DNA of 64,000 nt from a virus. Shown one piece after another: positions 29,434 to 48,700 of this stretch. Location of the stretch: the IMG/VR virus record IMGVR_UViG_3300050144_000109, positions 84,451 to 148,450 of that record; one strand, 5' to 3'. The translations under genes and the position numbers were made by a program. The notes under the pieces are model-generated. The model searched no databases, was not told the origin of the DNA, and saw only the letters and a program-made list of their open reading frames with translations. Every line of letters starts with the position of its first letter. Within the stretch, counting starts at the first letter, position 1.

Positions 29434-30189
29434 TTATTTCCACTTACTGAAGTGCGGCGCATTGTCCTGTGTGATTCTCCAACCCAATGACTGGAACAGC
29501 TCCAAACCAAAACCTTTGCTGGACTCAGTCGCCACATTGTTCACCAAAGGCTTCACCGTACTCATGAAGTGTGATTTCTCAAACTCCATGTCCACGTAAG
29601 ATTCCAGTCCAGGTGCTCGGTACTTGCGTGCCACTGCCAAGCCAGACTCAATCACTGCATCAAACGTCACAATCGTTCTCAGAATGCGCTGCTTGGTACC
29701 ACCTGTCCAAGAATCCTCAGTGAACGCACGAATAGAAAAACAAGTATTGTCTTTCGGGTTGTTGAACGAGTCCTCCAGAGCAGGACCAAACGGACCAGTC
29801 GGCCTCACTTTGGCCATGATCGCAATGATGGGCTTGCCACTCTCATCCTTGATGGAAGTCGCATCCAACCAAATCTCAGACAAGTGTGCTGCCACATTCT
29901 GCTCTTCAATGGTCATGACGCGGTTGGCATACTGCTCTTGTGTCATGCCAGGCAAAGGCTTCGGGTGCCCCATCTCGCTTTTCAAGACACCGGCTTTGAC
30001 ACGCCGCATGAACGTAGAAGAAGATTCAAACAAATCCTTGGCACCTTCATACGTGTAGTATTCACCAGACGAGTTGAACACATTCAAAGCACCCACAGGG
30101 AACTCACGGTAGCCGTTTTCGTCCTTAGGGAGAATGCCTTGCTTACCACCTTTCAGTGCGGTACAAGAGAATCGAACTTGGTTTTGCAT
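29434..30189 (-). CDS. Prohead/head maturation serine protease (phiKZ gp175-like)
   Basis: [28 protein letters not shown] and IVTFDAV motifs; synteny. Confidence 0.88.
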
Positions 30190-30312: not shown

Positions 30313-31041
30313 TTACTTTCTGAGCAATGACTCAATACGTTCAGTTCGATCTGACGGGTTGTTCAAAGCCGCTACAATGCCAGTGGACATGTAACTACCA
30401 CCCATGCGGTTGGTCGTATTGGTAGGAGCAAACGTCACGTCTCTGAGTGAAATATAAGCAGGTGGTCTTGTCTTGACATCACTGGCTGACTTCACAGTCG
30501 AGCGATAGTACTTGGTCTTGTCTTTGGCGTCTCTGGCCACAATTGAAGCAATGAGTTCTGTGACTTCATTGTTGCTGCCGATGTTGGCACCAGCATAGTC
30601 TTTCGACGTATCAAAGATAAAAGCCAAGTCATCATAACTGAAATACCAAGGCACATTTCCCTTAGAGAAGACTTCGTCATAAATCTTAGAGACGAGGGAG
30701 TCTGTCTTCACAATAGACGTTGACTTCATTACCGTCGATCCAGCAGGGAAGATGAACTCGAAGTAATCGTCTTGATTGATCTTGACTCTCACTGTTTCAG
30801 TCGGGTCAATGTTCAACATGGCGTTCACCATGCTGATGGCATACTGAGCATCTCCCACAATGATGGCATAGAGTCCTACGATGTAGTTGTCCACACCAAT
30901 GTTGGCCAAGCCACGCTCAGCAAAGCGACAAGGCAGGTGAATCTTACAGCCTGTCTTGGTTACCACACGACCATCCGGTAGTGTCACCAGCGTCTGAATG
31001 ACCGCTTGTGGGTCTCTTTTGAGAGATGCAATATTGATCAT
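30313..31041 (-). CDS. phiKZ gp176-like virion protein (proposed vRNAP-associated)
   Basis: 242 aa; KGNVPWY and C-terminal ERIESLLR; located between protease and vRNAP beta. Confidence 0.65.
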   Translation of the reverse strand: MINIASLKRDPQAVIQTLVTLPDGRVVTKTGCKIHLPCRFAERGLANIGVDNYIVGLYAIIVGDAQYAISMVNAMLNIDPTETVRVKINQDDYFEFIFPAGSTVMKSTSIVKTDSLVSKIYDEVFSKGNVPWYFSYDDLAFIFDTSKDYAGANIGSNNEVTELIASIVARDAKDKTKYYRSTVKSASDVKTRPPAYISLRDVTFAPTNTTNRMGGSYMSTGIVAALNNPSDRTERIESLLRK

Positions 31042-31059: not shown

Positions 31060-32520
31060 TCAAAGTGACTTCACAGTCAATTGGTCTCGAACATAATCAG
31101 TGACGTACTCGATCAGTGAGAGCAGGGCTGCTTCTTTCACGTCCAGATCAGGATTCTTCGCACAAGCATCATCGATACCCTTCAGAATCTTACCAGCGTC
31201 CGTGTAGTAGAATACGCAGTCACACACCAATGTCGTTGAGAGTTCCCACAGATTGTCAAACGCTTTGTCTGAGATGTTCATGCAAACATCCACAATGCGT
31301 TTCTTGAACTCAGTGTACTCTGGCAGATTCTCATCCACTTCAGCACAGTCTTTCACTGTAGCGTAGCACCCCTTGAAGTTCTCAGCCACCAAGCGTCTAG
31401 TCCGGTTGATAGCAATCTCTCGGCAGTAGCTGTACTTCTTGTTGGCCAGCGTCGTCTGCAGCATAGCGGTGTACGCGTTCCAGCGACGCTCCAATGCAGG
31501 ACGATTCTCCTGGATCAAAGGCACGTGCAGAATCGGCGTAGGCATCAGTGTAGACGCCAGCACCATGGCATTGTTGCCACCATTCTCCACCCAAGAACGG
31601 TAGACTTCACCGATGACTGTGATCTGTGTGGGGTTGTACGTCTTGATGAGAAGCTGTGTCTTGACAAAAGACTCGTACTCTTCAATGGCAAACACCAGTC
31701 GCGCTGCTGCTTCTGACTTCAAAGCAAATAGATTTTGGTTGAAGTTACCGCGAGAGATTTGACTGCCAGCATCCGGCGTATCGTGCAGCTTTTCACACAG
31801 CAAGAACACGGCCAAACACACATCCAAACCATCTGCACCCAGCTTCAGAGATTGGAAATCACTTCCATTGGGCTGACCAGTAAAACAAGAAGTCCACACC
31901 AGTTGCAGGAAAGCATCCCCCTTGGTAGCATACCAGTTGGTAAGTTCTTTATCCAAACCAAACTGTGAAACCGTCATGAGTTCTTTGAGCTCAGTGGGTG
32001 ACTTATCACCAAACCCACACTGCACGTACCTGACGGTCGTGACCGGCTTGTTCTTATAAGCTTGCAGCTCTTCACGCAGACCAGCGTCTGTCAAAGGAAC
32101 AGGCAGATCGTACGTGACAATCTTGGTGTCTTTGTAGGGATCCAGTTGAATAGAAGAGACGTCCTTCTTGATTTCTTCAGCCAGCTCTTCAATCAGAGGG
32201 CGCACCACGTTCTTGGCAAACGAGATGTGTTGACGAACATACTTGGCGATGCTCATCTTCAGAGCATCCAGCTTCTCAGTATGTGGAACAACTTCACCGC
32301 GGCTACTACCACCAAAGTTGTTGGAAGCTCCCACGATCAAATTCACAGAAGGATCATACTGCTTGGCTGCGCCAGAAACAGACTGCTCTCCCAGCTTCAA
32401 GAAGTTGCAAGCAACCAGCTCTCCCACAGGCGTGCCAGCTTGTGCACCCACTTGCAGGCCACGTGCATCAAACTCTTGTGTCAGTAAAATAGCTGCAGTG
32501 ACAGCGGTGTCATGAATCAT
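31060..32520 (-). CDS. phiKZ gp177-like head/ejection protein
   Basis: 486 aa, helical; synteny. Confidence 0.6.
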   Translation of the reverse strand: MIHDTAVTAAILLTQEFDARGLQVGAQAGTPVGELVACNFLKLGEQSVSGAAKQYDPSVNLIVGASNNFGGSSRGEVVPHTEKLDALKMSIAKYVRQHISFAKNVVRPLIEELAEEIKKDVSSIQLDPYKDTKIVTYDLPVPLTDAGLREELQAYKNKPVTTVRYVQCGFGDKSPTELKELMTVSQFGLDKELTNWYATKGDAFLQLVWTSCFTGQPNGSDFQSLKLGADGLDVCLAVFLLCEKLHDTPDAGSQISRGNFNQNLFALKSEAAARLVFAIEEYESFVKTQLLIKTYNPTQITVIGEVYRSWVENGGNNAMVLASTLMPTPILHVPLIQENRPALERRWNAYTAMLQTTLANKKYSYCREIAINRTRRLVAENFKGCYATVKDCAEVDENLPEYTEFKKRIVDVCMNISDKAFDNLWELSTTLVCDCVFYYTDAGKILKGIDDACAKNPDLDVKEAALLSLIEYVTDYVRDQLTVKSL

Positions 32521-32915: not shown

Positions 32916-34034
32916 TTATTTGTTGTAGATTTCAATCGCTCGCTTGGCAATCACTTCCAATAAGGTATTGGTCGTGCCAATCAGCGCAGGGGAGTTCACA
33001 ATCCGGTCGTCCACTGAACGAGCTCCGAAGATGGCATCGATGGTAGAGCCTTCTTCTGTGATGTAGTCACCTTCCATTACTTCAGAGAACACCGTCTTCA
33101 ACTGGTTTGCAAACACACCTTTATCACCCACACCAGCACTCACGTTGGAGGTGATGTAAACCTTGATGCACACGCAGTCCAATCCAAGAGGAGTGCCGTC
33201 GATTCTGAATCCACCGTCTACACTCCCGGTGAATGCTTTCCTGTTCAAAGACTTGGCTTTGTCTCTGAATTGCTTGTCACTGGCAGTACAGAGCGTCTGC
33301 AATGATTCACTCATGTCTTCTTTGTCACCATGGTAGTAGACTTCAATTCTCTCGATGATCCCCTTCACGCCTGCTTTTGGAGTTTGTGATCCCACCACCT
33401 TGAGGGTATCTAACGTGGCTTCGTCAAACACTTTGGCATTGGCTGTGATGCTGTCCTGAACGATGCAAAGAATAGAATCATAGTCTACTCGGTCACCAGG
33501 CTTCATGATTCTAGAAACAGTTTGTTCGAAATCCACCACGATCTGTTTGACTTTGGTGGTTTTGGTCTTGAGCTTTTCTGCAATTCTGGGAGAGATGCAA
33601 GAAGCGTCTTCTAGCGTCTGGGTAGACTCCCAAAGTGCTGTCTTGACGTTGACTGCATTCTTCCAGATCACTCGCTTGTTGTTGAAAGCATCAGGTTCAA
33701 AGAAACCTGTGTTGTAGAGAATAGCATCCCCTACTGCAATCTTGTCTCCTGCTTTTAAAGGGGAGTGGATCTCATGTGGAATGACCAAGCCTGCTGCGTT
33801 GCCGTAGCGCCTACCTAATTCATACCCTTTGACTTCCTTGTCATCGTATTCAACAATGATGCCCTTGTCTGTGATGGACTGCACCACACCTGGCTTCTTG
33901 GCAGTGATGGCAAACACGTCTTCACTGCGGTCAGCCACGATGTTCTCGTACCCCGTGCGCAGTGTAGGCTGATGGTACCCATCACAAGCAATCGAATGCG
34001 ATTGCTGAATGGCCACAAAGTTGACTCGTTTTCC
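32916..34034 (-). CDS. rpoB: Virion RNA polymerase beta subunit (phiKZ gp178-like), exon 3
   Basis: GKRVNFVAIQQSH, RTGYE, TLEDA, GVGDKGVFANQLKTV; in frame with exon 2 after intron removal. Confidence 0.88.
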   Translation of the reverse strand, partial: GKRVNFVAIQQSHSIACDGYHQPTLRTGYENIVADRSEDVFAITAKKPGVVQSITDKGIIVEYDDKEVKGYELGRRYGNAAGLVIPHEIHSPLKAGDKIAVGDAILYNTGFFEPDAFNNKRVIWKNAVNVKTALWESTQTLEDASCISPRIAEKLKTKTTKVKQIVVDFEQTVSRIMKPGDRVDYDSILCIVQDSITANAKVFDEATLDTLKVVGSQTPKAGVKGIIERIEVYYHGDKEDMSESLQTLCTASDKQFRDKAKSLNRKAFTGSVDGGFRIDGTPLGLDCVCIKVYITSNVSAGVGDKGVFANQLKTVFSEVMEGDYITEEGSTIDAIFGARSVDDRIVNSPALIGTTNTLLEVIAKRAIEIYNK

Positions 34035-34369
34035 CGTGGTGTTCAGCCGTGTTCGCTAGACACGACCCGTGCGTTTAAGCACCGCTCATGGGTTTCCCAT
34101 GAGACCAGACTATCTCTTCTTCCTTTTGTTCAAGGGAGCTTCCTGTTTCCTCGCCGCTTGGCAAGTACGGGGTGATAAATCCCCTAGTCGTTGAACTCGC
34201 ACCATAGACTTGTAGTCCTTAGGTGATCAGCTGCTGATTGCCCAATCTCGGTGATTTTCAAACCTTGGCTTTGTCTTTCGACTCGCAGTGGTTCACCAGA
34301 GCTCTACAGGACTTCCCAGCAATTAAGGAAGATTCACTGTACCTTCTCAAGTACAGCGGACTAATGTTA
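34035..34369 (-). ncRNA. Group I self-splicing intron (IA2-like), 335 nt, no ORF
   Basis: P AATTGCTGGGAA, Q CAATCAGCAG, R GTTCAACGACTA, S AAGAGATAGTCT; P3 CTTCCT/AGGAAG; 5' site GAT|TAA with U.G pair in P1 (GAUUA/UAGUC); terminal G. Confidence 0.92.
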
Positions 34370-35800
34370 ATCATCACGATCTGAAAATGGCGCCAGCAGT
34401 GCTGAGGTAGATACCAAGGAAGTGGCACCGTCCTTGGCCATGTCAAAGTCAGTAGACGTCCCTAACAATGAATTAAACTTAGGGTTTGCAGACAGGTACA
34501 CATTGATGGCCACGTCAGATGAGTCTACAGTAGACTCCGACACCGTACCCATGTCGTTTCTATGGTAAGCGCGTGTATGTTTGACCATGCTGACTTTACT
34601 GCGGCCACCCACACCTGCATACGTCACTGCTTCGACTTCTTTCAAAGCTTCAATTGGATTAATCTCGTTGGTCTGTGATTTAGAAGGATCTTCTACAATC
34701 TTCTTCCAGACTGCGTACGGGTTCATCTCAATCTTCTTATTAGACTTGCCCAATGATCCATTGTGTTGTCTGAGCGACTGGATGATCTCTGAGTACACAG
34801 CACCAGAGATTCTCTCATAACCCTTGATTCTCATCTCACGAGGATCCAGTTCATCAGGATGTTTGTCATCCAGCAGCATCTCGCAAGCTTTCAACAACAG
34901 GCCTTGGAATGTCTCTGGTAATTTCAATTGCTCCAAGAGTTGCTTGGTGATGGGATCAATGAACATCTGGTTCATCAAGTCCATCTCTCTCAAGTACCGT
35001 GCTGAAAGCTTATTCGATTCCAGCAAGTTCAAGTAAATCGCACGTTTGTCAAAACTGTACACTGAGAACAAACGAATGACTCTGTGGTAGTCTAAGAAGC
35101 CACCCAACACCATGGCAGCAATTCTGTCGTCTCTAGAGAACACCAAAGTCTCATCGGAGAACACCAGTGCATACTCACTAGGTTCCAGTGACACTCGCTT
35201 ACCTGCTTCTACCCGTCTAGGGGTTACACGCAAAGACTTCATGAGTTCTGTGAAACCCATGTAGTATGCCAACACCACGCCTACAGGAACATCCTTACCA
35301 AACACACCCACTTCAGCAAACTCAACAGGTGAGAAATCAGTAGGAATATTCAGAAACGATTCCAGTGTCCCAGCAGGCGTCATGGCTTCACCTACCAAAG
35401 TGTAGAGTGCGCCCATGCTGTCTAGTACCAAGTAAGCACCTTTCAAGTTCATGCCTACCAGCAAGTTGCCTTGCTTGATGGTTTTCTCATAGAGCACAGG
35501 GTCTGCCAACTTTTGCATGGTCTCTTGTTCAAAGTAAAGCGTGTACCCCTTTGTAACAATGGACTTGAAACTGGTCGAGATGGCAGTGTAAGCTCTGGGT
35601 GCTTTGAGAGAAGGATCAAACACATCTGCAGGTGTGACTTGTGACAAGTCCTTGTCTTCTTGAGACAAAGCTTTGGTCATGATCTTGGCATTGAGCCAAG
35701 CACCGTAGTCATGTGTCTTCTTTCTTCCTCTGGTCACAAACGTCTTGCCAAAGTAACTTGTCATGGCTACTCGGTTAGGCGCTAGTTTTCTTAAGGGGAG
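34370..35800 (-). CDS. rpoB: Virion RNA polymerase beta subunit (phiKZ gp178-like), exon 2
   Basis: LPLRKLAPNRVAMTSYFGK, RIKGYER, TYAGVGGRS, SESTVDSSDVA; ends SDRDD. Confidence 0.88.
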
Positions 35801-36245
35801 CATCCCTTACAATGGACCATATCACCACCCTCTCAAAATCTTTGAGTTAGGGTGCCTACCGTTTCGGCTGTTGAGTTTCATCAACAGAATCATTGCTGAT
35901 TACGCATATCGAGATGCGCCCTACTCTACTCGCTTTAATCGCTTCATTCAAGCAACCACCTGACTTTATACAGATGTGATTATCCAGCACCAAAAAGCAC
36001 CAGAATAGCTTTCGATGGCCTCTGAGCACACTCCGTATACCACAAGGATACCTTAGGAGCTTCGCTGCGGATCATGTCTTTTAACAACGTTTTAACCAAG
36101 CCTGATTGGATCATTACCCGACAGGTATTGCACTACGTTTCCATGTGCAAGTGGTAGCTGTTAAAATTTTAAGACGTTTTCCCGCACTTAGGTAGGTTTT
36201 CTTTTACCGTATTTCTACGAGTAAGGGGACCATGCTTGGCTTTTA
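35801..36245 (-). ncRNA. Group I self-splicing intron (IA-type), 445 nt, no ORF
   Basis: P1 GGGGAU/GUCCCC with U.G at the splice site; P AAGTGCGGGAA, Q GATCCGCAG, R CTCAGAGGCCA, S GATATGGTCC; P3 CCTACC/GGTAGG; terminal G. Confidence 0.9.
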
Positions 36246-38021
36246 ATCCCCGCGCTGTTTACGCATCCGGTACTTCGTACCAGAAGCTTCGAAGGTACCG
36301 TCCTCTTGAATCTTAGGAATCTTGAACTTGATCGTACTGGGAGCACCCTCCACAGGAATCAGCTTCACCGTGTGGTCCTCATAAGAGCCCATGATGTCTT
36401 CAGTCAGCTCAATCTGATAGTCTGCAACAGCCACCCCAGCTTTTTGAATCTGAGTGACCATGGATGCAGTATGTCTAGGCAGAATCTCTTTGATGTACTG
36501 CTTGTCAAACCCCACCAGTGTACTGGACAACATGGTCTTGTCCACCACTGTTTTCTCATCCAAGAAGCTCTGGGTCTTCTTCAGAATCAATTGCTCAGGA
36601 CTCACCTGAATCTGCTCACCCAAAGTCCCTTCACCATAAGGGTTCTTGATGTTCTTATAAGCCCCAGCCAAAGCAGTGAAGCGCTTGTACTCACCAGCCG
36701 TCAGTAAGCCGTCATCAGCCAATCTTTCACATACATCCAACACCCCCTTCTCCAAAGGGGCGTCCTTGACTGCCATGATGGTTCTAAAGTCCACACCGGA
36801 AGACTCCACTTCTAAGTCAGACTTGTGGGCAATCTCGTTGAGCGCAGCAAGTTCCTCATCGAGAATTCGTTCTTCCTCAACCATCCTCGCTTTCTTCTGC
36901 TCAGGCGTTTCGTCTTCTTCCTCTTTGTCTAACTCTTCCACTGATTTGAGTTGTACATCAAACGCAGTATTGAGCTGCTTCTTACCCAAGATAGAGTTAC
37001 TGTCTTCATCAACGGCAGGAAAGTCAAACTCTCCATTGTCCATTGCATCAGTCTCCATGTCAGACTTGTTCTGCAAGACGCCTGCGACTCCTTTGGCGTC
37101 CTGAGCGTCAGAGGTGTTCGCAGTCGCAGTGCGCGCTTCCATGACCCGCATCAGAAAACGAAGAAAGCGTTTCTGTACTTGCTCAGCCCCTACAGCACCG
37201 GGCAATACCACTTGAGCTGTATTCTCAGGCGTGTTCTCTTTGTTCTCATCTAGCGCATTCAGTCTGAAAGCATCCAGATACCCTAGATTGATCAACGTCC
37301 ACTTGCCAGTTTCTTGGTGCACCAAGTTGATCAGGTGAAGTTTGTTCCGAGGAATCTTAGAGAACAGACTCGTCTCACGGTCAGGACCTAACCACTTCCA
37401 AAGCTCCAATACCATCCAAGAGTTGACATCGTTGAAAATCTTCAGCAAAGGCTGAGATATGTTCTTGCTGGCAGCGTCTAGCTGAGCGATGCTAGGAAGG
37501 ATCTTAGGAATGCCGCAGAGCAGGTACTGGTTCGATTCTACCAATGAAGCTACATTCGCCATCTCACGTGTGATCGCAGCGAATGTGTTGTGCCACTTGT
37601 AATACTCCGTGAAGACAGCCCGCACGTAGCGGTAGTTCTTTGCAATGAGACAGTAGTTGTAGCAGATGAGAGTCTGCTGGTCTTTGGCTGTAGACTCTAG
37701 TGCACGCAACTGTCGCAGTCTGCGGTTCTTGTTGAGAAGCTCTCTCAGGAGTGTGCCTTCTGAGATGACTAGTTTTCTAGGAGGGCCTAACTCATCACCA
37801 ACTTCATTGACGTTGTGCAGGAAGATGGATTTGGTCTGCCCGTTGAAGATGAACTCGTCTGGTTCAGGACCCAGTGCAATTCCGTCGTAAGTGACATGGT
37901 GGTAGAGACTTCTGAGGGGCAAGCTCAAGTCTTTCAGGTCGTGCAAGATAGGTGTCATCAACAGTGAGAGCGTGCGGACACCGTACTTTCTAAAGTAGAT
38001 GGCTTGATTCAGAGTGGTCAT
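36246..38021 (-). CDS. rpoB: Virion RNA polymerase beta subunit (phiKZ gp178-like), exon 1
   Basis: 592 aa ending DGTFEASGTKYRMRKQRGD; spliced product is 592+477+372 = 1441 aa. Confidence 0.85.
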
Positions 38022-38022
38022 T

Positions 38023-39645
38023 TCATTCTCCTGTCAGGTTGTGTAAAACATAAGTGATCGTATCTGTGGACAAGTCTGATGTGAACTGTCCATTTGATCC
38101 TACGTAAAAAGACTTCTTTTTCAGCAGTTCATCGACCTCTTTGATGCTGTCTTCTGAGTACAAAATGATGCCACTGCTCGTGTCCCCGTCAAAATCAGCC
38201 TTCAACTTACTTAACCGACACGGGTGCGGCGATTGTGAATCAAAGGTACTGGAGCCCTTCATTGGGAATTGGTACGCTGTATGTGTGTCTCCAATGGGTT
38301 TCCAGTCCATCCCCAACTCCTTCCTGATCTCCGCCTTGATGGTACTCTTCAGATACACTTTCGAAGGATACGTACTGCGATCAGATTCAATCGGGTAGCG
38401 TGTCACCAGCATGGGGTACCGTGAAGACGTCTGGTACACACTCGCATAAAAGAACTCTGTGAACGTCGTCGGTGTGCAGTGCTCAGCACTCCTACCCTCA
38501 GGCAAGTCAGAAATACCATGGATCAACTTGAACGTACCGTCTGGTCCCCGGTAGGTCAATCCTAAGTAATACCCATAAATCACAATGGGCTCATCCCGCA
38601 CAGAAGGCTCACGGTAAATGTTGATGAGCTTTTCAATGCCTTCGTTGGTCATCCATCTGTCAAAGATGTCATAACTCAAATGCACACGCTCTGACTCCAG
38701 TGTCTTTTTGTTCACCAAGAGTGCAGGTGCTGAAGGTGAGGAGAATACTTCAGAGAGGAATCCGTTTCTCAGCAAGGTGCGTGCTACAGGAAGAATGCCT
38801 TTGAGGTATTGGAAGATACCGATCGCTGTATCGTTGATGCCAATGTTGCCAGGCGCTCCCACCACAGAGACAGTGGTGTCCATGGCTGTGATCACGTTTC
38901 TGGTGGTATTGAAGATCTTTCTAGACGCCCACTTGCCCATGAACAGATTGGATTTACCTTCTACGAGTTTGAGGAACGCATCGTAGATCTGGTTGAAGGT
39001 GTTTTGCATGCCCATGCGCTGGCCATTGTAGGCTTCTGGAGCAGCTTTGAGTGCACCTTCATTGATGGTATTGGCTGTGGCCAGGAGTTTATAGTAAAGA
39101 GAATTGACTTCATCCGAAGACTCTCTACCATTGTCATCAATTTCTATGTCACGGTAGCCTGCTGGGATGACATAGATCTTGTCCAGTAAAGCTTTGTCTT
39201 GATACGTTTTGATGAGTTTGATGTTTTCTTGTCGTTGCTGAGAAGGCGTAGTTTGATATTGGATTTCTTTGAAATGGTCAATGAAGAATTGATAGCCTGT
39301 TTGACCTTCTAGTGCATTGGACTTGACGAAGTCTTTGGTTTGCTTATCGAAGACTGCAAACTCTCTACCGGAGAGGATGTCCAGGTAGAGGGATTTGATC
39401 TGTCCTAAAGCTTTGAAGATGATTGGATGGATGATGGATACCTTGATGTTGATCCAAGAGTATTTGATGTAGCGCGCATCGGTACCGACGACTCCGTAGA
39501 TTTCTGTGGAGTAGAGACCGTCTTTGTGGAAGTTTTTGGTCGCACCGTCGTAGATGTCGAGACTGGTGGTGGGTCTGACCATCTTGAGCACGTCTGGTGG
39601 GATGACGAGCAGATCAATGTTGAATGGGATGTCGCTGGACTTCAT
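38023..39645 (-). CDS. rpoC: Virion RNA polymerase beta' subunit, catalytic part (phiKZ gp180-like)
   Basis: Catalytic ADFDGD motif; GLYSTEIYG, GKWASR, TRNVIT and VTRYP. Confidence 0.92.
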   Translation of the reverse strand: MKSSDIPFNIDLLVIPPDVLKMVRPTTSLDIYDGATKNFHKDGLYSTEIYGVVGTDARYIKYSWINIKVSIIHPIIFKALGQIKSLYLDILSGREFAVFDKQTKDFVKSNALEGQTGYQFFIDHFKEIQYQTTPSQQRQENIKLIKTYQDKALLDKIYVIPAGYRDIEIDDNGRESSDEVNSLYYKLLATANTINEGALKAAPEAYNGQRMGMQNTFNQIYDAFLKLVEGKSNLFMGKWASRKIFNTTRNVITAMDTTVSVVGAPGNIGINDTAIGIFQYLKGILPVARTLLRNGFLSEVFSSPSAPALLVNKKTLESERVHLSYDIFDRWMTNEGIEKLINIYREPSVRDEPIVIYGYYLGLTYRGPDGTFKLIHGISDLPEGRSAEHCTPTTFTEFFYASVYQTSSRYPMLVTRYPIESDRSTYPSKVYLKSTIKAEIRKELGMDWKPIGDTHTAYQFPMKGSSTFDSQSPHPCRLSKLKADFDGDTSSGIILYSEDSIKEVDELLKKKSFYVGSNGQFTSDLSTDTITYVLHNLTGE

Positions 39646-39799: not shown

Positions 39800-42700
39800 A
39801 TGTTTGGATTTGGAAAGAAAGCCAGAGTAGAGAATGAGTCGATTGACAGTGAGTTCAATCTGGATGACGGCTTGGACATGGGGGGGTTTGATTTTGATGC
39901 TGACCCCATGAAAGACGACAGAAAGCCAGTGACGAAGGTGCTGGATGGTGCACTGACTGGTTTCAAGGCTGGGGTGTCGGATACCAGCTTTTTAAAGAAG
40001 ACCGTCAAGGACATCTTGCCTGAAGGGTATGGCAAGACGTTAGATCTGCATGACAAAGTCAATGGCAGCATTCGTGACCTATACGATGAAACCGCCAAGG
40101 AAGTCAAACCAGCGATCAAAGAGTTCAAGAAAATCAGTGCAAGACTGATTCCTTCTGACTCTAAATTCATCCCGACTCCTGTGCAAGACTTGCTGCAGAA
40201 GTGGAGAGATGAGAAAGAAGAGGAGAAGCGGGACTCTTCTTTGGATGAGAATACACAAAAAGAACAGTTCTTGTCTGTGCAGATGGCAGACATCTTTCAA
40301 GCGCAGTCAGAAGACAAGCAAAGCGAGAAGAAAGAGAAAGACGCCAAAGACAACATCCAACAAGGCATAGACTTAGAGCGTCACCGGGACTTGCTGGGCA
40401 TTGTTTCTAACATGGATCAATCCGTCTCTCGGATTGACCAGTATGGCCGCTCAGTGGGTTTGAACTACCAGAAGAAGACGTTGGAGTTGATGTACCGTCA
40501 GCTCTTTGCTTTGCAAGACTTGGTGAAGCTGGGTGAGAAGGGGTTTGGCGTGATGGCCAACGAACTCCCTGCCATCAAGAAGAACACTGCATTGCCTGAG
40601 TTTGTCAAGCAAACCAATACCGAGTTCTTGAAAGAATACAACAAGAAGAAACTGGTCGAGACGATTGGTCGTAACTTGTTTGGCACGGGTGCTGAGTATC
40701 TGGACAAAGTGCTTGGGAACTTCAATAAGAATCTGAAAGCCAAGTTCAAGGAAGGCATTGGTCAGTTCAAAGACACGCTCACCCAAGCTGGCGAGATGCA
40801 CGACAGCATGAAAGACATGGGGGACATGCCTGGCATGGACAAAGCCACCATGGGTGGCAGCATGGTTGGTGACGCTGCTGCCAAAGGCATTGGCGGCAAG
40901 GCTGCGAAGTGGGTACAGAGCAACGTACTGAACAAGAGCGAGCGCGTCAACAAGCTGGGCTCTAAGTTACTCAACGCCAGTGTGGATGCGCCACGCGCCA
41001 TCAATGAATTCAGAGAGAAGAATGCAAACAGCTATTCAGATACTCTTTGGGGAAAAGCAAAGTCTGCTGCAGCCAGTCTGATCAGTCCGTTTGAGGAGAG
41101 CAAAAGCATTGAAGGGCAAGATGCTACCAAGCTAGGAAGTCCTGGTGTATTCTCCAAGAGAACAGACAGGTCCATCAATGAAGTCATTCCTGGATTCCTG
41201 GCTAGAATCTTGAGAGAGGTTCAAGTCTTCAGAACTGGAGATGAAAGCATTGAACTGCAAGCCTTTGACCATGTGAAGAACACTTTCACAGACAAGGGCA
41301 AGCTAGAGAAAAGAATTCAAGACTCTGTGATTGATTCTGGCGCTAAAGAGAACATGCACGGGCAGCTTGATGAGATGATCAAGCATACCGAAGGGCAGGA
41401 TCTCTCTCCAGAAGCCAAGAAAGCACTGAAGAAACGCTTGACCATGACCAGCGCTTCTGGCAAGCGCATGAGTCAGGAGAACTTTGATCAAGAAGACCAC
41501 TACGAAGGTGAGGGTGCTGCAGAAGCTGCAGCACACATGAAGAAGTACTTTGAAAAGAACAAAGACAACCAGGCGCACCAAACTGCAATCAAGCGCAGGC
41601 ACGACAACCTAGGTTCTTACGTCACCAACACCATGGGACAAGTAGAGACCAACGCTGAGCTTGGCTACACTGAGGAGTTGCAAAAGGCTGGCTTCTTGGA
41701 GAAAGACGGTAGAACAATTTCCAGAGACAAGATTCTGGAACATTACTTAAACCGCGAAGAGAAGAAAAAAGAAAATGGTGAGGGTGGATCTGATCCGTCA
41801 AATGAGCCAGGCAATCCCCCTGGTCCTGTGCCGCCTGGTCCAACGCCTCCGATTCCAGGAGCTGTTCCCCCGATCAATCCACATGGTGGTCCTGGTCCAG
41901 GAGGCCCCACACCGCCTCCGAACGTTGACTCTGGCTTAGGCGGTGGAGCTCCCAACCCTGTATCGGATACTTCAGCCGCTGGTGGCGCAGATCCGACGGT
42001 TGGACCACCAAAGCCAAAGACCAAGCTCCAACGTCTGGCGGGTTCTATTTCAACAGACATCGGTAACTTGCTAGAAGGTGCTTATAACAAAGGCTCGGAT
42101 GCTGTCAAGGGAACCATCGAAGTTTTGGACAGCAAAGACCCAAAAGAAAAACTCATTGAAAAGCTAGTCCCTAAGAAGTACAGAAGACTCTACAAAGACG
42201 GTTTACTTGATCGACACATGGTCGTTCAAGAACTGAAGAACGCGGCTAAGAAAGGTGGCCGTGATCTACAAGTCAAGATTGATGAAATCAAACAGCTCAA
42301 CAAGGACGGTGCCCTCAACATTGAGAATCTGGCACTGATCGCGCAAGGTAAGTCAGTCAAATCTGATTCAACACAGCCTGCTGAGCAGAATACTGAAACA
42401 GCTTCGATTGATGCTGGTGCTGACAAACCCAAAGCCTTCGCTAAAGGTGGCGTGTTTTCCAACTCCGTGCTGAACAAGCCGACTCCGTTTAGCTTTGAGC
42501 AAGGCGGCAAACCACACGCTGCAGTCGCTGGTGAAGCTGGCCCTGAAGCGGTCATGCCACTCACTGCACAAGGTGTGCGTGCAGTCGATGAGAAAGGGAA
42601 CGTACAAGCACACTTGCCACTGACGAGAGATAAGAACGGTATCCTTTCAGTTGAGCATGCCAACTCTATCAAGGATACTGGAAAGAAAGTTCTAGACGCT

Positions 42701-45700
42701 GTGGGTGGCTTCTTCACCAACACACGCGAAGCACTCCAGGACATCATTGCGGATAAAGCACACGAGCTGAAGAGTAAGCCTGTAGAGGCCAAGTCTTCTG
42801 CTAAGCCTTCTGCGCTGCCTGCAACTCCAAAGCCAGCCATGCGCAAGGACATGTCGGACAACGACAAGCTACTGTCCAAGTTGGATGAGTTGATCGATAC
42901 AGTCAAGAGTGCTTGGTCGGGTTCCTCTGTTGGCTCTACGGTAGGCAGTGTCGCACAGTCCGCAACTGCTTTGGCTGGAAGAGCCAGGAATGCTGCAACT
43001 GAGTTCATGGGGAGTCCGAAAGCGCAAGTGATGAAGACCCGTGCAACCGAAGGCTTCTCTGTAGCACAAAAGAAAGTAGAAGAACTCAAAGCATCACCTA
43101 AGCTGACTGCGTTACAGACAGCCGCTACCAAGAAGTTAGAGCAAGCTAAGAAAGTAGTCTCACAAACGAAGCTCCCCAGCATGGAGGAGATGGGTGCGCA
43201 TGTAAGCAGTGCAAAGAAGAGCGCCACTGGCTTTGCAGAGCAGTTGAAGACGCACGCTATTCTAGGCGCTGGGAAGCTTCAACAGCATTTGGAGAATATC
43301 CAGAAGACTCCTTCTGACCCTACTACACCAGTCAGTGTATTGGACCAGCTTAAAGCACATGCAAGTTCTGGCGTTCAAGCAGTACAACAAAAGATCCAAC
43401 AGAGTCAAGGCAATCTGGATCCAAAGACCAAAGAAAAGATCAGCGGTCTGCTGTCTGGAGCTGCTTCCAAAGCCAGCGCCGTAAAGAAGCAGCTGCATGC
43501 AGCTACGACTAAAGTCAAAGAACAAACACAAGGGTTCTTAGAGCAGCAGCCTGCACTGGCTAAGCACATTGAAGCTGGTCGTGAGACGGTGGGTAAGTTG
43601 CTAGGCACTGCACAAGCAACGACTCCGCTAGAGCCGGTAGTTACTCCCCAAGCAGCTGCCAGTAATGCCACTAGCATGGGTAAGAAAGATACGCTTAAAG
43701 CGCGTTTAAATGCTGCACATGCAGATTTATCTGGCCATCTGGAAAGTGTGTTAACACCAGCACCCACATTGTCTACAAAGATGGACGATGTGAAACAAAG
43801 CAGTGGCGGCGTATTCCAGATGCTGCGCAACAAGCTGGACAAGAAGTCGACCCAAAATGTTCAAGTAACGCAAACCAATGAGAAGCCCACGCCTGAAGAA
43901 GCGAAAGAGCATTCAAAGGTCCTGCAATACGCACAGACTCTGATTACCAAGAAACAAACCACGACTGAAGAAGTCAAGACCATCCTCAACTCACTGGTAG
44001 AGAAGAAAGCACTGACGCTGGAGAACTTTAAGAAAGTGCTGAAGGGCGAAGAAGTAGTCTCTAACAAGGTTGAAGAAGTTCAGTCCGCTACTCAAGACAA
44101 GAAACTCACACTGAAAGAACAACTCAAGGCAGGTGCGCAGTCTCTGCGAGTGTTCGGTGAAGACCAACTCATTAAAACCAAGCAAGCCTATACACAACAC
44201 CGCCAAGCCTCTTTAGACAAGGCTGAAGAAAATAAGCCGCCTGCACAAAACGACAAGCTGAAGAAAACCATTGCTGCTGCACAGGCGTACGCCCCTACAC
44301 TCAAGGGTAATGTTCAAGACAAGTTGGAGTCCGGCAAGAAGAACGTTCTGGGTTTCATGAACGTAGTCGCTGAGCAAGCCAAGAAACTGGCTGAACAAGT
44401 CCATGAGAAGGGATCTAAAGCTGTCGAGACTGGGAAAGCATTTGTCAATGAGAAACTGGAGAGTCGCAAGAGCAAAGAGTCTGGAAGTGCTTTCAAAGAA
44501 CGCGATGAAATCACTGGTGATCTTGAAACCGTACTGAGGAAGAACTTACACGGGATTCAGATCACGCTGGACAAGTCAGAAGACCACTTGTCTAAGATCT
44601 TGGAAGCCATCCGCGAAGGTGGCGGTGGTGGCAATGGAAAAGCCAAGGGTTCTTGGTGGTCATTTGGTAAGAAGGGTAATGAGGAAAAGGCGAACCATGG
44701 AAGTGGTGTGTCTGGTCTGGTAGGTAGAGCTGCATCGAGCGCTACTTCTCTGGCAGGCAAAGGCCTAGGCTTGGCAGCACGCACCTTCGGCAAGACTGCC
44801 ATGATGAATGTCAGTGCGATCAAGTGGGCGGGTAAGAAACTGATGCCTGGAGGCCCTAAAGAGCCTAAAGACATTTATGTTGAAGGTGAGTCTAGACCGC
44901 GCCTGTACGCTGCAAGACTTAAAGAGGGTATGTACATTAAGAAGATCAGCAAGAAACCCCTGACCGATATCAAGGACTTGAACGAACCAATCATTGACCA
45001 AGAAGGCAATGAGCTACTGACAGAAGAAGACTTGAAGAAGGTCTACGTCAAGAGCATCGGTGGGAAAGCCAAGAAGTTATTAGGCGGCATTGGGAAAGTC
45101 GGTGGAGCCGTTGGTCGTGGTCTGGGCTCTTATGCTGGTCTGGCCAAGAAAATCATTGGCTTTGAAGTCGACATGGTGCGTGGCGGTCTGGGACTGGCTA
45201 AGAAAGCAGTGACTGGCGCTTACGGCCTCATGAATGGTCCTGCAGATGTCTACACACTAGGAATTGAAGAACCCGTCATGGTCGCTACTGTGATGAAGCA
45301 TGGCGGTTACGCTTCCAAGCTCACAGGCAAAGTCATCAAGAAGCCAACAGACATCGACGGTCCAGTCGTAGACAAAGAGGGCAACACGGTCCTGACCACG
45401 GATCAATTGAGAAAAGGTATTTTCAACGCAAAGGGAAAGAAGTTCAAAACACCTTTGGGTAAGCTACTTGGTGTGGCTGGTAAAGTCGCAGGCACTGTTT
45501 GGGGCGTACAGAAAGCAGCTTGGGGACTGACCAAGCAAATTGGTAAGAAGATGCTAGGTGGTCTGAAAGGACTGACTGGTGGGCTCTTTGATGGCTTGTC
45601 TGTAGAGATCAATGGTGCCAAAAGCGTCTCTGTACTCACTGAGATCAAAGAGATGCTCAAAACGTACTTTAGTGGAAAAGGAAAAAATGAGGATAAAAAC

Positions 45701-48700
45701 AACAAGCCAGACATTACCAAGGATGAAAAAGGTTTCAAGATAGGTTCTTGGCAAGACTTGAAGCTCAAAGCTGAGGAGCGGATGAAGGAGAAGAAAGAAA
45801 AACTAAAGAATGGATTGGCTAATTTGAAGGACGGTGCCGGTAAAGTCAAGAACAAGTTGCTGAATCCATTTGAGCTGTTCAAGGACTTGAAGGGCTTGGT
45901 CACTGGGACCTTGGGGAAGATCACTGGGCTTATTTCTGGCGTCAAGGGTCTGTTCTCGATGGGTAAAGGCGCCATTGGCATGCTGGGTAAACTGGGCAAG
46001 GTCGGAGGTTTGGCTGCAAGGCTGTTGCCAATGGCTGGTGGTTTGGCCGGTAGTGCAGTCGGCGCTTTGGGTACACTGGGCTCTGGCGCTGCTGCTGCGG
46101 CTACTGGCATTGCTGGGGCTGCCGGTACAGTGGTCAGTGCAGGCGCTGGCATGATGGGTGCAGCCGCTGGTGGTGCAGGTGCTTTGGGAGCTGGGTTGCT
46201 GAGCTTCTTAGCGTCGCCTGTGGTACTTGGTGTGGCTGCCGCTGCAGTTGTCGGCTATGGCGGCTATAAACTTTATAAACACTTCAAGAACAAACTCACC
46301 CCTTTGGACAGTGTTCGTTTTGTGCAATATGGTTTCAAGAAAGATGACAAAGACAGCTTCAAGAAGGTGTTGGAGCTAGAAGAATACTGCATGGATTTTG
46401 TTGCTTACAGCAAAGGACAAGCCAGCATCAGCGAAAAGAAAATGACCATGAAGAAACTCATGGGTCCATTTGGATTTGACTGTGAGAATAAAGAAGACTT
46501 CAAACTCTTCTTTGAATGGTACCAAAGAAGATTCAAGCCTGTGTTCTTGACGCACTGCTCTGTCATTGCACAAGTCATGGACCAGTCTAAACCAGACCTG
46601 AGCGTCATCTCGGATTTGAAGAAAGAAAAAGCAGCAGAATACTTGGAGAAGGCATCGTTCTCTGGCGGCCCTTACGATTTGAATAAGTTGCCGTTGAAGG
46701 AAGATACTTACCAAGCCAGTACCGCCAAAGACGTCGCTGACAACATTGCGGCTGTCAAGGAAGAATTAGGTCTGGATAAACTGGATAAGAAAGAAACTGG
46801 CTCTAAACTAGGCAGCATCGCTGGAGCTGCTGGTGTAGCCAGTGTGGCAGGCAAGTCCAACAAGAATGAGGAAGTAAAGCCGGGTGAGAAACCTGAGAAA
46901 TCTAAAGAAAATAAATCTGTTTTAGAATCTGTCTCCAGTGGCTTGAAAGCGATGCTGACGGGTACAGTAGGTAAAGTAGGTGCAGTAGCTACTGCTGGGA
47001 TGGTGGGCGGCCCCATGGCTGCTTTGCTGGCGACTGCGGGCATTGCCGGCTACACTCTGATCAAGTCGTTCGGTAAAACTAAACTCATGCCAGTCGACAA
47101 TGTGCGCCTGGTGCAATATGGATTTAAGAAAGACGATCAAGAGAACTTTGATAAGGTTGCCAAATTAGAAGCATACTGTAAATCGTTCCTCACCTACAGT
47201 GAAGGAAAGATGACCATCGATGAAACCAAGATGCAAATGAAGGAGCTGCTGGGTCCGTTTGGATTAGACCCCAGCAACAAAGAGGAGTTAGAGCAGTTCT
47301 TCGAATGGTACCAGAAGCGCTTCAAGGTGGTTTACTTGACCCACTGCGCCGTCATGGCGCAACTCAAGAAGACTGCCAAGCCAGATACCAAAGACATCAA
47401 TGCGTTAAAGTTGGATGAGCAGGGCGACTACTTGACTGGCGTTGCTTTGGAGGATGGTCCTTACAACATCACAACACTGCCGCTCACAGACAAGAAATAC
47501 AAAGCGTCTACTGCAAAAGACGTGAAAGAAGTCATTGCTGAAATGAAGAAGATGCTGGGCAAGTTTGCAAAGTCTAGCAAGCCCAGTCTCTTGAAAAATG
47601 CTGCAAAACCTGCGGCCATTCAAACTGAAATGGAAACAGAAGAAGTCGATCCTTCTACAGAGAAACAGGCAAGCGATGCGCCAGTCAATCTGGGCGGGTT
47701 TACACTGAAGGGCAAACAAACCCCTACAGCAGCGACTGTTTCCAGCATCAGCAAGATCAACAAGAATCTAGAGACTAAAGATGATGAAGAGTACGGTGAC
47801 GATGTTCAGATGCAAGAGCTGGTGGATTTATCCACACTCAAGCAGGACGGCAAACTCAGCGCACTCGAAGCCATCAAGTTCAAAACGTACGGTTTGAAAG
47901 AACTGGACAAATCCAGGATGAAAGCCATTGAAGTCGTGGAAGCGGTTGTGGCAAAGACGATGGTTTATAAGAGTGGTACGACAGACTGGGCTGGAAGTCC
48001 ATTGGCGACACTGGATGAAGTCAAGGGTCACTTCGGAATCACAGACAAGATTGGGGTTGATGCCAACAACTGGATCACCTGGTTCATGAAACGGTTCTTA
48101 CCCGTTTACTTGAAGTACGTGAGTCTGTGGTGTGCTTACTCGGGTCAGAAGACCTACACTGGGAACTTGGGGATGATCAAGGTTTCTCAGCAACAAGACA
48201 TGGCCAAGCAAATTGCTGCGATGTCCGTTTGGAGCGAGAACAAGACGCCATTCCCGAACTATATTCTCAACACTGATTCTGACAGCGTCAAAGAGAATTT
48301 AGAGTTCTTAGAGAAAACTGTCAAGCAAGAAAAAGCACTGGAAGAGAAGGTAACAGTTGCCAAACAGCAGCAGCCGATCAGCCCCAATGACGACAAGGAA
48401 AAGCAGGCTAAAGAAGCTGCTACCAAAAACAACGATGAAAACAAAACACTGTTTGGGAAAACGCTTAATCAAGACGCTACACAAACTGGGCAATCTGCCA
48501 ACAAACCAGAAGAAGAAAAACCAACTGCTTCTACCTCTAGTTCTACGGGCCAGGCTGCTGGAGGAGGAGGTGGAGGGGGTGCTAGCCCTACTGGATTGAA
48601 ACTTGCGGAAGGCGCTCCACTGGACGGCTCCAACGGTTTTCAATTCATCAACAAACAAGACAATGGTGTCAAGACAGACGGCGTTAACCCCGCATTCTTG

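Follow-up and report, generated by a model that had tools for sequence, protein, structure and literature searches.

This analysis focused on a 64,000-nucleotide (nt) stretch of viral DNA, hereafter the window, that represents the last 64 kb of the 148,450-bp IMG/VR viral contig IMGVR_UViG_3300050144_000109, and in particular on a minus-strand region (32916-38021) in which three pieces of open reading frame (ORF) follow one another. The region is a single predicted gene, an ortholog of phiKZ gp178 that specifies the beta subunit of the virion RNA polymerase (RNAP). With a probability of about 0.88, this gene is interrupted by two group I introns, is spliced to give a protein of 1441 amino acids (aa), and carries introns that were once mobile and have since lost their endonuclease genes. 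Site 2 was already known from phage PhiPA3, as are group I introns of this kind, so that the window is, on solid grounds, mostly an ordinary further example.

The ORF pieces lie at 36243-38021, 34367-35803 and 32916-34016, as the initial annotation had read them, and exons 1 and 2 each end in the codon GAT, directly followed by an in-frame TAA that opens the spacer. Excision of 35801-36245 (intron 1) and 34035-34369 (intron 2) leaves 4326 nt, encoding 1441 aa and a stop, and the joined protein reads KQRGD/LPLRK and SDRDD/GKRVNF at the junctions, where the slash marks the point of insertion. This is the protein that had been proposed, and its alignments to the uninterrupted homologs FLC9 gp40 (46% identity) and RP12 ORF041 (42%) are gapless across both junctions. 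The 3' boundary of intron 1 at 35801 is supported by homology, in preference to the end given by the Rfam alignment at 35790, which is 11 nt away and would break the frame and delete the conserved residues LPLR. If intron 2 were taken to end at the G at 34056, 34047 or 34044 instead, the frame would be kept as well, but 3 to 7 residues absent from every homolog would be added, and these ends were rejected. Both introns interrupt highly conserved protein motifs. A profile of 43 homologs aligned junction 2 (DD/xKR) with LEHDD/ANRALM of Thermus and Escherichia coli RpoB, at E. coli D675/A676, which bears out the earlier placement of this junction in the conserved HDDANRALM region. Junction 1 lies in the motif NG..YR.RKQRGD/LP, for which the top match in an ungapped motif scan was E. 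coli INGTERVIVSQLHR151/S152PG (z 4.8, compared with 3.4 for the runner-up), so that it probably, and provisionally, corresponds to R151/S152. Comparison by hidden Markov model or profile-profile alignment, whose coverage was the C-terminal two thirds only, did not place junction 1 on RpoB.

Identification of the gene was provided by PHROG 3148, annotated as an RNAP beta subunit, which the three exons cover end to end and continuously: exon 1 matches positions 4-574 (E 2.6e-129), exon 2 positions 575-1050 (E 8e-182), and exon 3 positions 1052-1422 (E 6.3e-151). Exon 2 shares 50% identity with FLC9 (tblastn), about 40% with Pseudomonas jumbo phages among the matches listed, and 38% with phiKZ gp178. 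Pfam gave no significant match to the exons or their neighbors, even at E up to 10, as the family is too divergent, and PHROGs and a custom profile were therefore used. Single exons found no match among PDB sequences by phmmer, and the 43-homolog family profile was needed for matching bacterial RpoB; it matched Thermus RpoB with an E value of 4.8e-17 and spanned E. coli RpoB residues 515-1107. The order of genes (protease, virion protein, gp177-like, beta, N-terminal piece of beta', giant tail lysin) is that of phiKZ gp175 to gp181, which is the virion and not the non-virion set of RNAP genes, and the earlier identification as virion RNAP beta stands on this and on the complete PHROG coverage. 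In phiKZ, the RNAP that is carried in virions has gp178 as its beta subunit (PMC11620839), and by orthology the product of the window's gene would be packaged as well.

Both spacers were recognized by the Rfam group I intron model RF00028 (curated threshold 50 bits) with full-model matches, intron 2 at 34085-34379(-) with 50.7 bits, which meets the threshold, and intron 1 at 35790-36255(-) with 46.4 bits (E 4.8e-10 in the local search, 6.8e-12 per genome), so that the proposed check with group I models was passed at threshold by intron 2, and by intron 1 only as regards a full-length match. The P, Q, R and S elements, the P3 and P7 pairings, the P1 U.G pair and the terminal G that had been noticed in each spacer are present in the Rfam alignments. 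P1 of intron 1 pairs GGGGAU/UA with UGGUCCCC, and that of intron 2 pairs GAU/UA with UUAGUC; in each, the last U of the exon forms a U.G pair with the internal guide sequence (IGS). Additional hairpins lie in both introns between P7 (5' strand) and P3 (3' strand), intron 2 having P7.1 and P7.2, and intron 1 a long insert at the position of P7.1 and P7.2 in subgroup IA. From the presence of these hairpins at their typical position, intron 2, and likewise intron 1, would be described as subgroup IA-like, by our own reading of the alignment and not by formal classification. Covariation indicates that the structures have been maintained. The five site-2 ribozymes compared (see below) are 57-69% identical in pairs, have their whole architecture in common, and show compensatory changes in 34 of 61 predicted pairs, while intron 1 and the introns at the same site in the comparison loci L012 and L015 have a mean column identity of 74% and compensatory changes in 30 of 97 predicted pairs.

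An unusual feature was found at the 3' end of intron 1, where only 13 nt follow the 3' strand of P7 and the intron forms no P9 of its own. The tail of the intron pairs with exon 2, close to its start, in a hairpin whose loop holds the splice site together with the terminal G; it was because this hairpin was read as P9 that the Rfam 3' end was misplaced at 35790. As a MAFFT alignment set the helix out of register for pair counting, the hairpin was examined by per-sequence folds and by pairing every tail with every exon. In each of the six loci (the window, L012, L015, L021, L022 and L023), RNAfold put a helix of 6-9 bp at the equivalent position, the tails of the introns covary with synonymous exon changes in the Pro-Ile/Leu-Arg codons, and the mean energy of a tail with its own exon was -10.9 kcal/mol, compared with -6.7 kcal/mol with the exon of another locus. 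The hairpin may present the 3' splice site in lieu of a clear P10 pairing, and the pairing of site-1 introns with their exon, instead of a P9 of their own, is a small, testable variant of 3' splice-site definition.

The initial annotation missed that intron 2 lies at a published site. Its counterpart in PhiPA3 occupies the same gene (gp211 and gp209), at the identical insertion point after the second Asp of DD/xKR (D1072 of phiKZ gp178). The PhiPA3 ribozyme, located directly after the HNH gene gp210 and between gp211 and gp209, is homologous to intron 2 (63% identity in the alignment; 68% over 214 nt by blastn), and the two have in common the P5 extension and the hairpins P7.1, P7.2, P9, P9.1 and P9.2. 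They differ in that the PhiPA3 intron is about 1350 nt long and includes gp210, whereas intron 2 has 335 nt and no endonuclease ORF, and in that the phages are distant from each other. The only endonuclease of this group tested by experiment is that of PhiPA3: gp210 acts as a homing endonuclease on precisely this site, and damages the competitor phiKZ (Birkholz et al. 2024, Science; PMC11620839). On sequence grounds, then, intron 2 is the known intron of the gp210 site without its HNH gene. The site-2 introns of the window, PhiPA3, the phage HPP-Temi, and loci L011 and L014 all follow the second codon of the DD pair (DA in L011), and in all five the allele with the intron ends in U (GAU or GCU); the intron-less alleles of phiKZ, KEN51, FLC9 and RP12 end in GAC (4 of 4).

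HPP-Temi (PP968062; locus L007, 5938-6285) provides a further example, with an ORF-less intron of about 348 nt at the same site (NDD/PKR; RF00028, 70.5 bits) that is 72% identical to intron 2 over 245 nt, including a 106-nt stretch at 85%; it differs in being the single intron of its beta gene. The GenBank record of HPP-Temi has two separate beta genes (CDS0210 and CDS0212) and a 39-aa hypothetical ORF, and leaves the intron unannotated. Among cultured phages, all nucleotide relatives of intron 2 were other introns of Pseudomonas phages. The part of intron 2 from P4 to the P5 extension, 34230-34335(-), is 80-85% identical to introns in unrelated Pseudomonas phage genes, including the intron of phiKZ gp56 and those of the N4-like phages LP14 and YH6, even though the host proteins are about 40% identical or unrelated, and this disparity suggests that one pool of introns is common to phages of one host range. 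The RNAP genes of phiKZ are known for predicted introns with the HNH genes gp56, gp72 and gp179 (Mesyanzhinov 2002, as cited in PMC10914365). These resemble the introns of the window as group I introns in jumbo-phage RNAP genes, and the ribozyme after gp56 (75.6 bits) matches the P4-P5 region of intron 2 at 80% identity. They differ in occupying other genes and sites and in having endonuclease genes, and gp178 of phiKZ has no interruption.

A second recurrent site in the beta gene is that of intron 1, as judged from predicted introns at exactly RGD/LP in five metagenomic loci (L012, L015, L021, L022 and L023), all of them confirmed by Rfam. In L015 and L022 the intron holds an ORF of 434-488 aa that matches phrog_681, phrog_559 and phrog_9084 as well as Pfam DUF723 and a treble-clef zinc finger, and that represents a putative endonuclease family different from the HNH enzymes of site 2. 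Cultured phages provided a single 60-nt match as nucleotide relative of intron 1, and no description of site 1 was found in the literature searchable here. Here, too, the alleles with an intron end in U; of the intron-less ones compared, RP12 ends in GAC and FLC9 in GAT.

Also missed was how common the two-intron layout is in metagenomes. A search with exon 3 returned 1256 homologs at E<=0.001 (representative library), and the best 150 representatives included about 26 proteins, 349-434 aa long, whose start is no more than about 25 residues from junction 2, and roughly 7 to 9 proteins of about 800-875 aa that start near junction 1. With exon 2, about 75 of 120 clusters among the matches listed were proteins of 464-515 aa covering at least 97% of the exon, and several of these exon-2-only clusters came from contigs of 200-280 kb. 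Since such proteins are common, and Rfam introns were present at both boundaries in the three exon-2-only loci inspected (3/3), the predicted two-intron layout is widespread in metagenomes. The introns at site 2 of HPP-Temi and L011 are ORF-less, and those of L014, L021 and L023 carry I-HmuI-like HNH genes, the endonuclease ORFs of this site matching phrog_59 and phrog_959, both annotated as HNH. The two sites occur in all combinations of ORF-bearing, ORF-less and empty, and the window is the version in which the ORF is absent from both introns.

Several lines of evidence concern the fate of the nuclease genes. The claim that neither intron has an ORF was upheld, as the longest frame with a sense-strand start inside an intron has 57 aa (intron 1) and no significant Pfam match. 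Between the end of the beta' gene (38023) and the start codon of beta (38021) there is a single base and hence no nuclease gene, again as first described. Extending the search for endonucleases to the 148-kb contig (about 55% of the genome) gave no full-length homing endonuclease and no match to HNH (PF01844), GIY-YIG or LAGLIDADG_3, and two intron endonucleases of relatives likewise found no match on the contig, with the exception of one weak 112-aa HNH-like ORF. This ORF, at about 37325-37663(-) of the contig and outside the window, matches phrog_17657 (E 4e-8) and, weakly, the site-2 families phrog_959 and phrog_59, lies about 2.5 kb from an intron of the gene for DNA polymerase, and is the sole nuclease-like candidate in the contig. 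Loci L012 (7716-8756) and L015 (8535-9635) have a free-standing GIY-YIG (I-TevI-like) gene between the virion structural and head protease genes, a place where the window has none. The earlier view, that the introns are either homing remnants or mobilized in trans, fits the presence of introns at the same two sites in relatives, some with endonucleases; of the two, it is simpler to suppose that the nuclease genes were lost.

Staphylococcus phage Twort has three ORF-less group I introns in one gene. Its nrdE gene has two introns (PMC113830). Twort and the td, nrdB and nrdD genes of phage T4 resemble the window in having several small introns of the subgroup IA type that lack a working endonuclease, placed in conserved motifs of essential genes; the comparison draws in part on a citation in PMC12908238. 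The host genes and phage families are different, and the likeness noted is one of description.

In the preferred interpretation, two guanosine-initiated splicing reactions would join the exons as GGGGAU/CUCCCC and GAUGAU/GGAAAA, the spliced mRNA would specify a single 1441-aa protein, and unspliced RNA would give truncated products only. The introns would descend from mobile introns that homed to these two sites and whose endonuclease genes have since been lost, the ancestor at site 2 perhaps having had an I-HmuI-like HNH gene, and that at site 1 a member of the other endonuclease family, as relatives do. Several points weigh against this. The splicing of both introns is a prediction, and the phage is uncultured. 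Long-read transcriptomics of phiKZ revealed no spliced reads for the introns predicted there (PMC10914365), so that, in this phage group, prediction alone has once not been confirmed. Intron 1 is 3.6 bits under the curated threshold of RF00028 and is without its own P9 hairpin; the homologs at the same site in L012 (65.1 bits) and L021 (61.1 bits) score higher, and the site-1 family therefore passes despite the shortfall of intron 1. Finally, with some 45% of the genome missing, an endonuclease that acts in trans is possible.

The phiKZ transcript data (PMC10914365) would agree with introns that have decayed and lost splicing, the beta subunit being made as three polypeptides that assemble, like the naturally split RNAP subunits of jumbo phages, which are frequent and have been proposed to originate by intron mobility followed by intron loss (PMC7598289). 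Possible starts exist near the beginnings of exons 2 and 3 (ATG 35803 and GTG 34016), but the ATG overlaps the terminal G and is without a properly spaced ribosome-binding site, and the GTG would lose the conserved residues GKRVNF. Moreover, the breaks fall within the most conserved motifs and not at domain borders, and both ribozyme cores are complete, with helices kept by compensatory changes across relatives, which makes this explanation highly improbable. Splicing introns that are still mobile, being moved in trans by a homing endonuclease, free-standing or carried by an intron, from elsewhere in the genome, would be compatible with the missing portion of the genome, with the weak match of the 112-aa ORF to the site-2 families, and with the free-standing GIY-YIG genes near this gene cluster in relatives. 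However, the 148 kb available contain no full-length member of either intron endonuclease family, of GIY-YIG or of LAGLIDADG, and the 112-aa ORF has no I-HmuI-type DNA-binding modules and is far from the beta gene, so that continued mobility of this kind is unlikely.

A regulatory role for splicing was also considered, in which the in-frame UAA codons and the 3' splice-site hairpin would tie the output of virion RNAP to splicing efficiency, for example to timing or GTP level. An in-frame stop does open both introns, and the 3' splice site of intron 1 lies within the covarying hairpin. However, phage group I introns commonly open with an in-frame stop, which does not call for a role in regulation, and close relatives do without either intron. 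Splicing of phage T4 introns is condition-dependent, as cited in PMC10914365, but a control function in the window is, on balance, a little more doubtful than mobilization in trans.

Coordinates of the introns, exons and neighboring genes are given in the table below. A small ORF separates the beta gene from the gp177-like gene, and the piece of beta' adjoins beta directly upstream, the same order as phiKZ gp180 and gp178. Orthologs of gp180 are uninterrupted in the window and in KEN51, and phiKZ gp180, from the phiKZ region of gp180, gp179 and gp178, is about 50-60 aa shorter than these. In L021, a group I intron match of 85.7 bits (1801-2105) comes directly after an HNH ORF that follows the gp180-like gene (see also L022, 1-178). 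Because of the short phiKZ gp180 and this L021 intron, the beta' piece appears to have an intron site of its own near the 3' end in some phages. The giant tail ORF, of the phiKZ gp181 type (phrog_3201), has its transglycosylase domain near residues 3246-3437; the corresponding proteins of phiKZ and FLC9, at about 2240 aa, are much shorter.

Features of the beta gene region and of the source contig (window positions, except where marked as contig)
Feature	Position	Strand	Remarks
Head maturation protease	29434-30189		neighbor
Virion structural protein	30313-31041		neighbor
gp177-like gene	31060-32520		neighbor
Exon 3	32916-34034	minus	372 codons and stop; GKRVNFVAIQ...IYNK
Intron 2	34035-34369	minus	335 nt; ORF-less group I; in-frame UAA at start, terminal G
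Intron 2 core	IGS 34359-34364; P 34313-34324; Q 34230-34239; R 34185-34196; S 34107-34118	minus	Rfam alignment
Exon 2	34370-35800	minus	477 codons; LPLRK...SDRDD
Hairpin across 3' splice site of intron 1	35792-35809	minus	intron tail UAAGGG with exon-2 bases +4 to +9 (CCCUUA)
Intron 1	35801-36245	minus	445 nt; ORF-less group I; in-frame UAA at start, terminal G
Intron 1 core	IGS 36225-36232; P 36178-36189; Q 36064-36073; R 36016-36027; S 35814-35825	minus	Rfam alignment
Exon 1	36246-38021	minus	592 codons; ATG 38021; 3' end ...CGC GGG GAT
N-terminal beta' piece of virion RNAP	38023-39645	minus	uninterrupted; 540 aa; phiKZ gp180-like; PHROG 2986, E 4.9e-190
Tail protein with transglycosylase domain	39800-50842	plus	3680 aa; strand opposite to beta gene
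ORF-less group I intron (locus L001/L002 pair)	contig 34501-34814	plus	outside window; 65.9 bits
ORF-less group I intron (locus L001/L002 pair)	contig 68055-68417	minus	outside window; 53.2 bits

The contig as a whole was estimated by CheckV to be about 55% complete. It encodes a homolog of chimallin, the nuclear-shell protein of phiKZ, in a 628-aa frame (E 1.4e-20), and the source is therefore a phiKZ-like, uncultured jumbo phage that probably forms a nucleus. By the beta gene, it is closest among cultured phages to Burkholderia phage FLC9 and the RP12 group of Ralstonia phages. A non-virion gp55-like gene is situated elsewhere on the contig, adjoining the chimallin homolog. The two further introns of the contig split the DNA polymerase gene (phrog_3011) and this gp55-like non-virion RNAP gene (phrog_2987), respectively; the latter is the gene that bears the gp56 intron in phiKZ.

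Gene callers split the beta gene of the window into three hypothetical proteins, and it is likewise split in HPP-Temi and in many metagenomic contigs. Knowledge of the two exact junctions allows correct annotation of the essential virion RNAP beta subunit across uncultured phiKZ-like phages. It also places the experimentally studied site of PhiPA3 as one of two recurrent sites, each with its own endonuclease family. A broader proposal, put forward tentatively and in itself more speculative than probable, is that nucleus-forming jumbo phages have, in their gene for virion RNAP beta, two separate hot spots of homing, served by different families of introns and of endonucleases, and that the ORF-less introns of the window are more than decaying remnants and are kept as protection. 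An occupied site would split the recognition sequence and so guard against the endonucleases of co-infecting relatives, at both sites and without the cost of a nuclease. Interference competition of this sort has been shown for PhiPA3 against phiKZ (PMC11620839). The mixed states of the two sites among relatives provide a natural series for the cycle of endonuclease gain and loss, and for intron-based competition between co-infecting phages.

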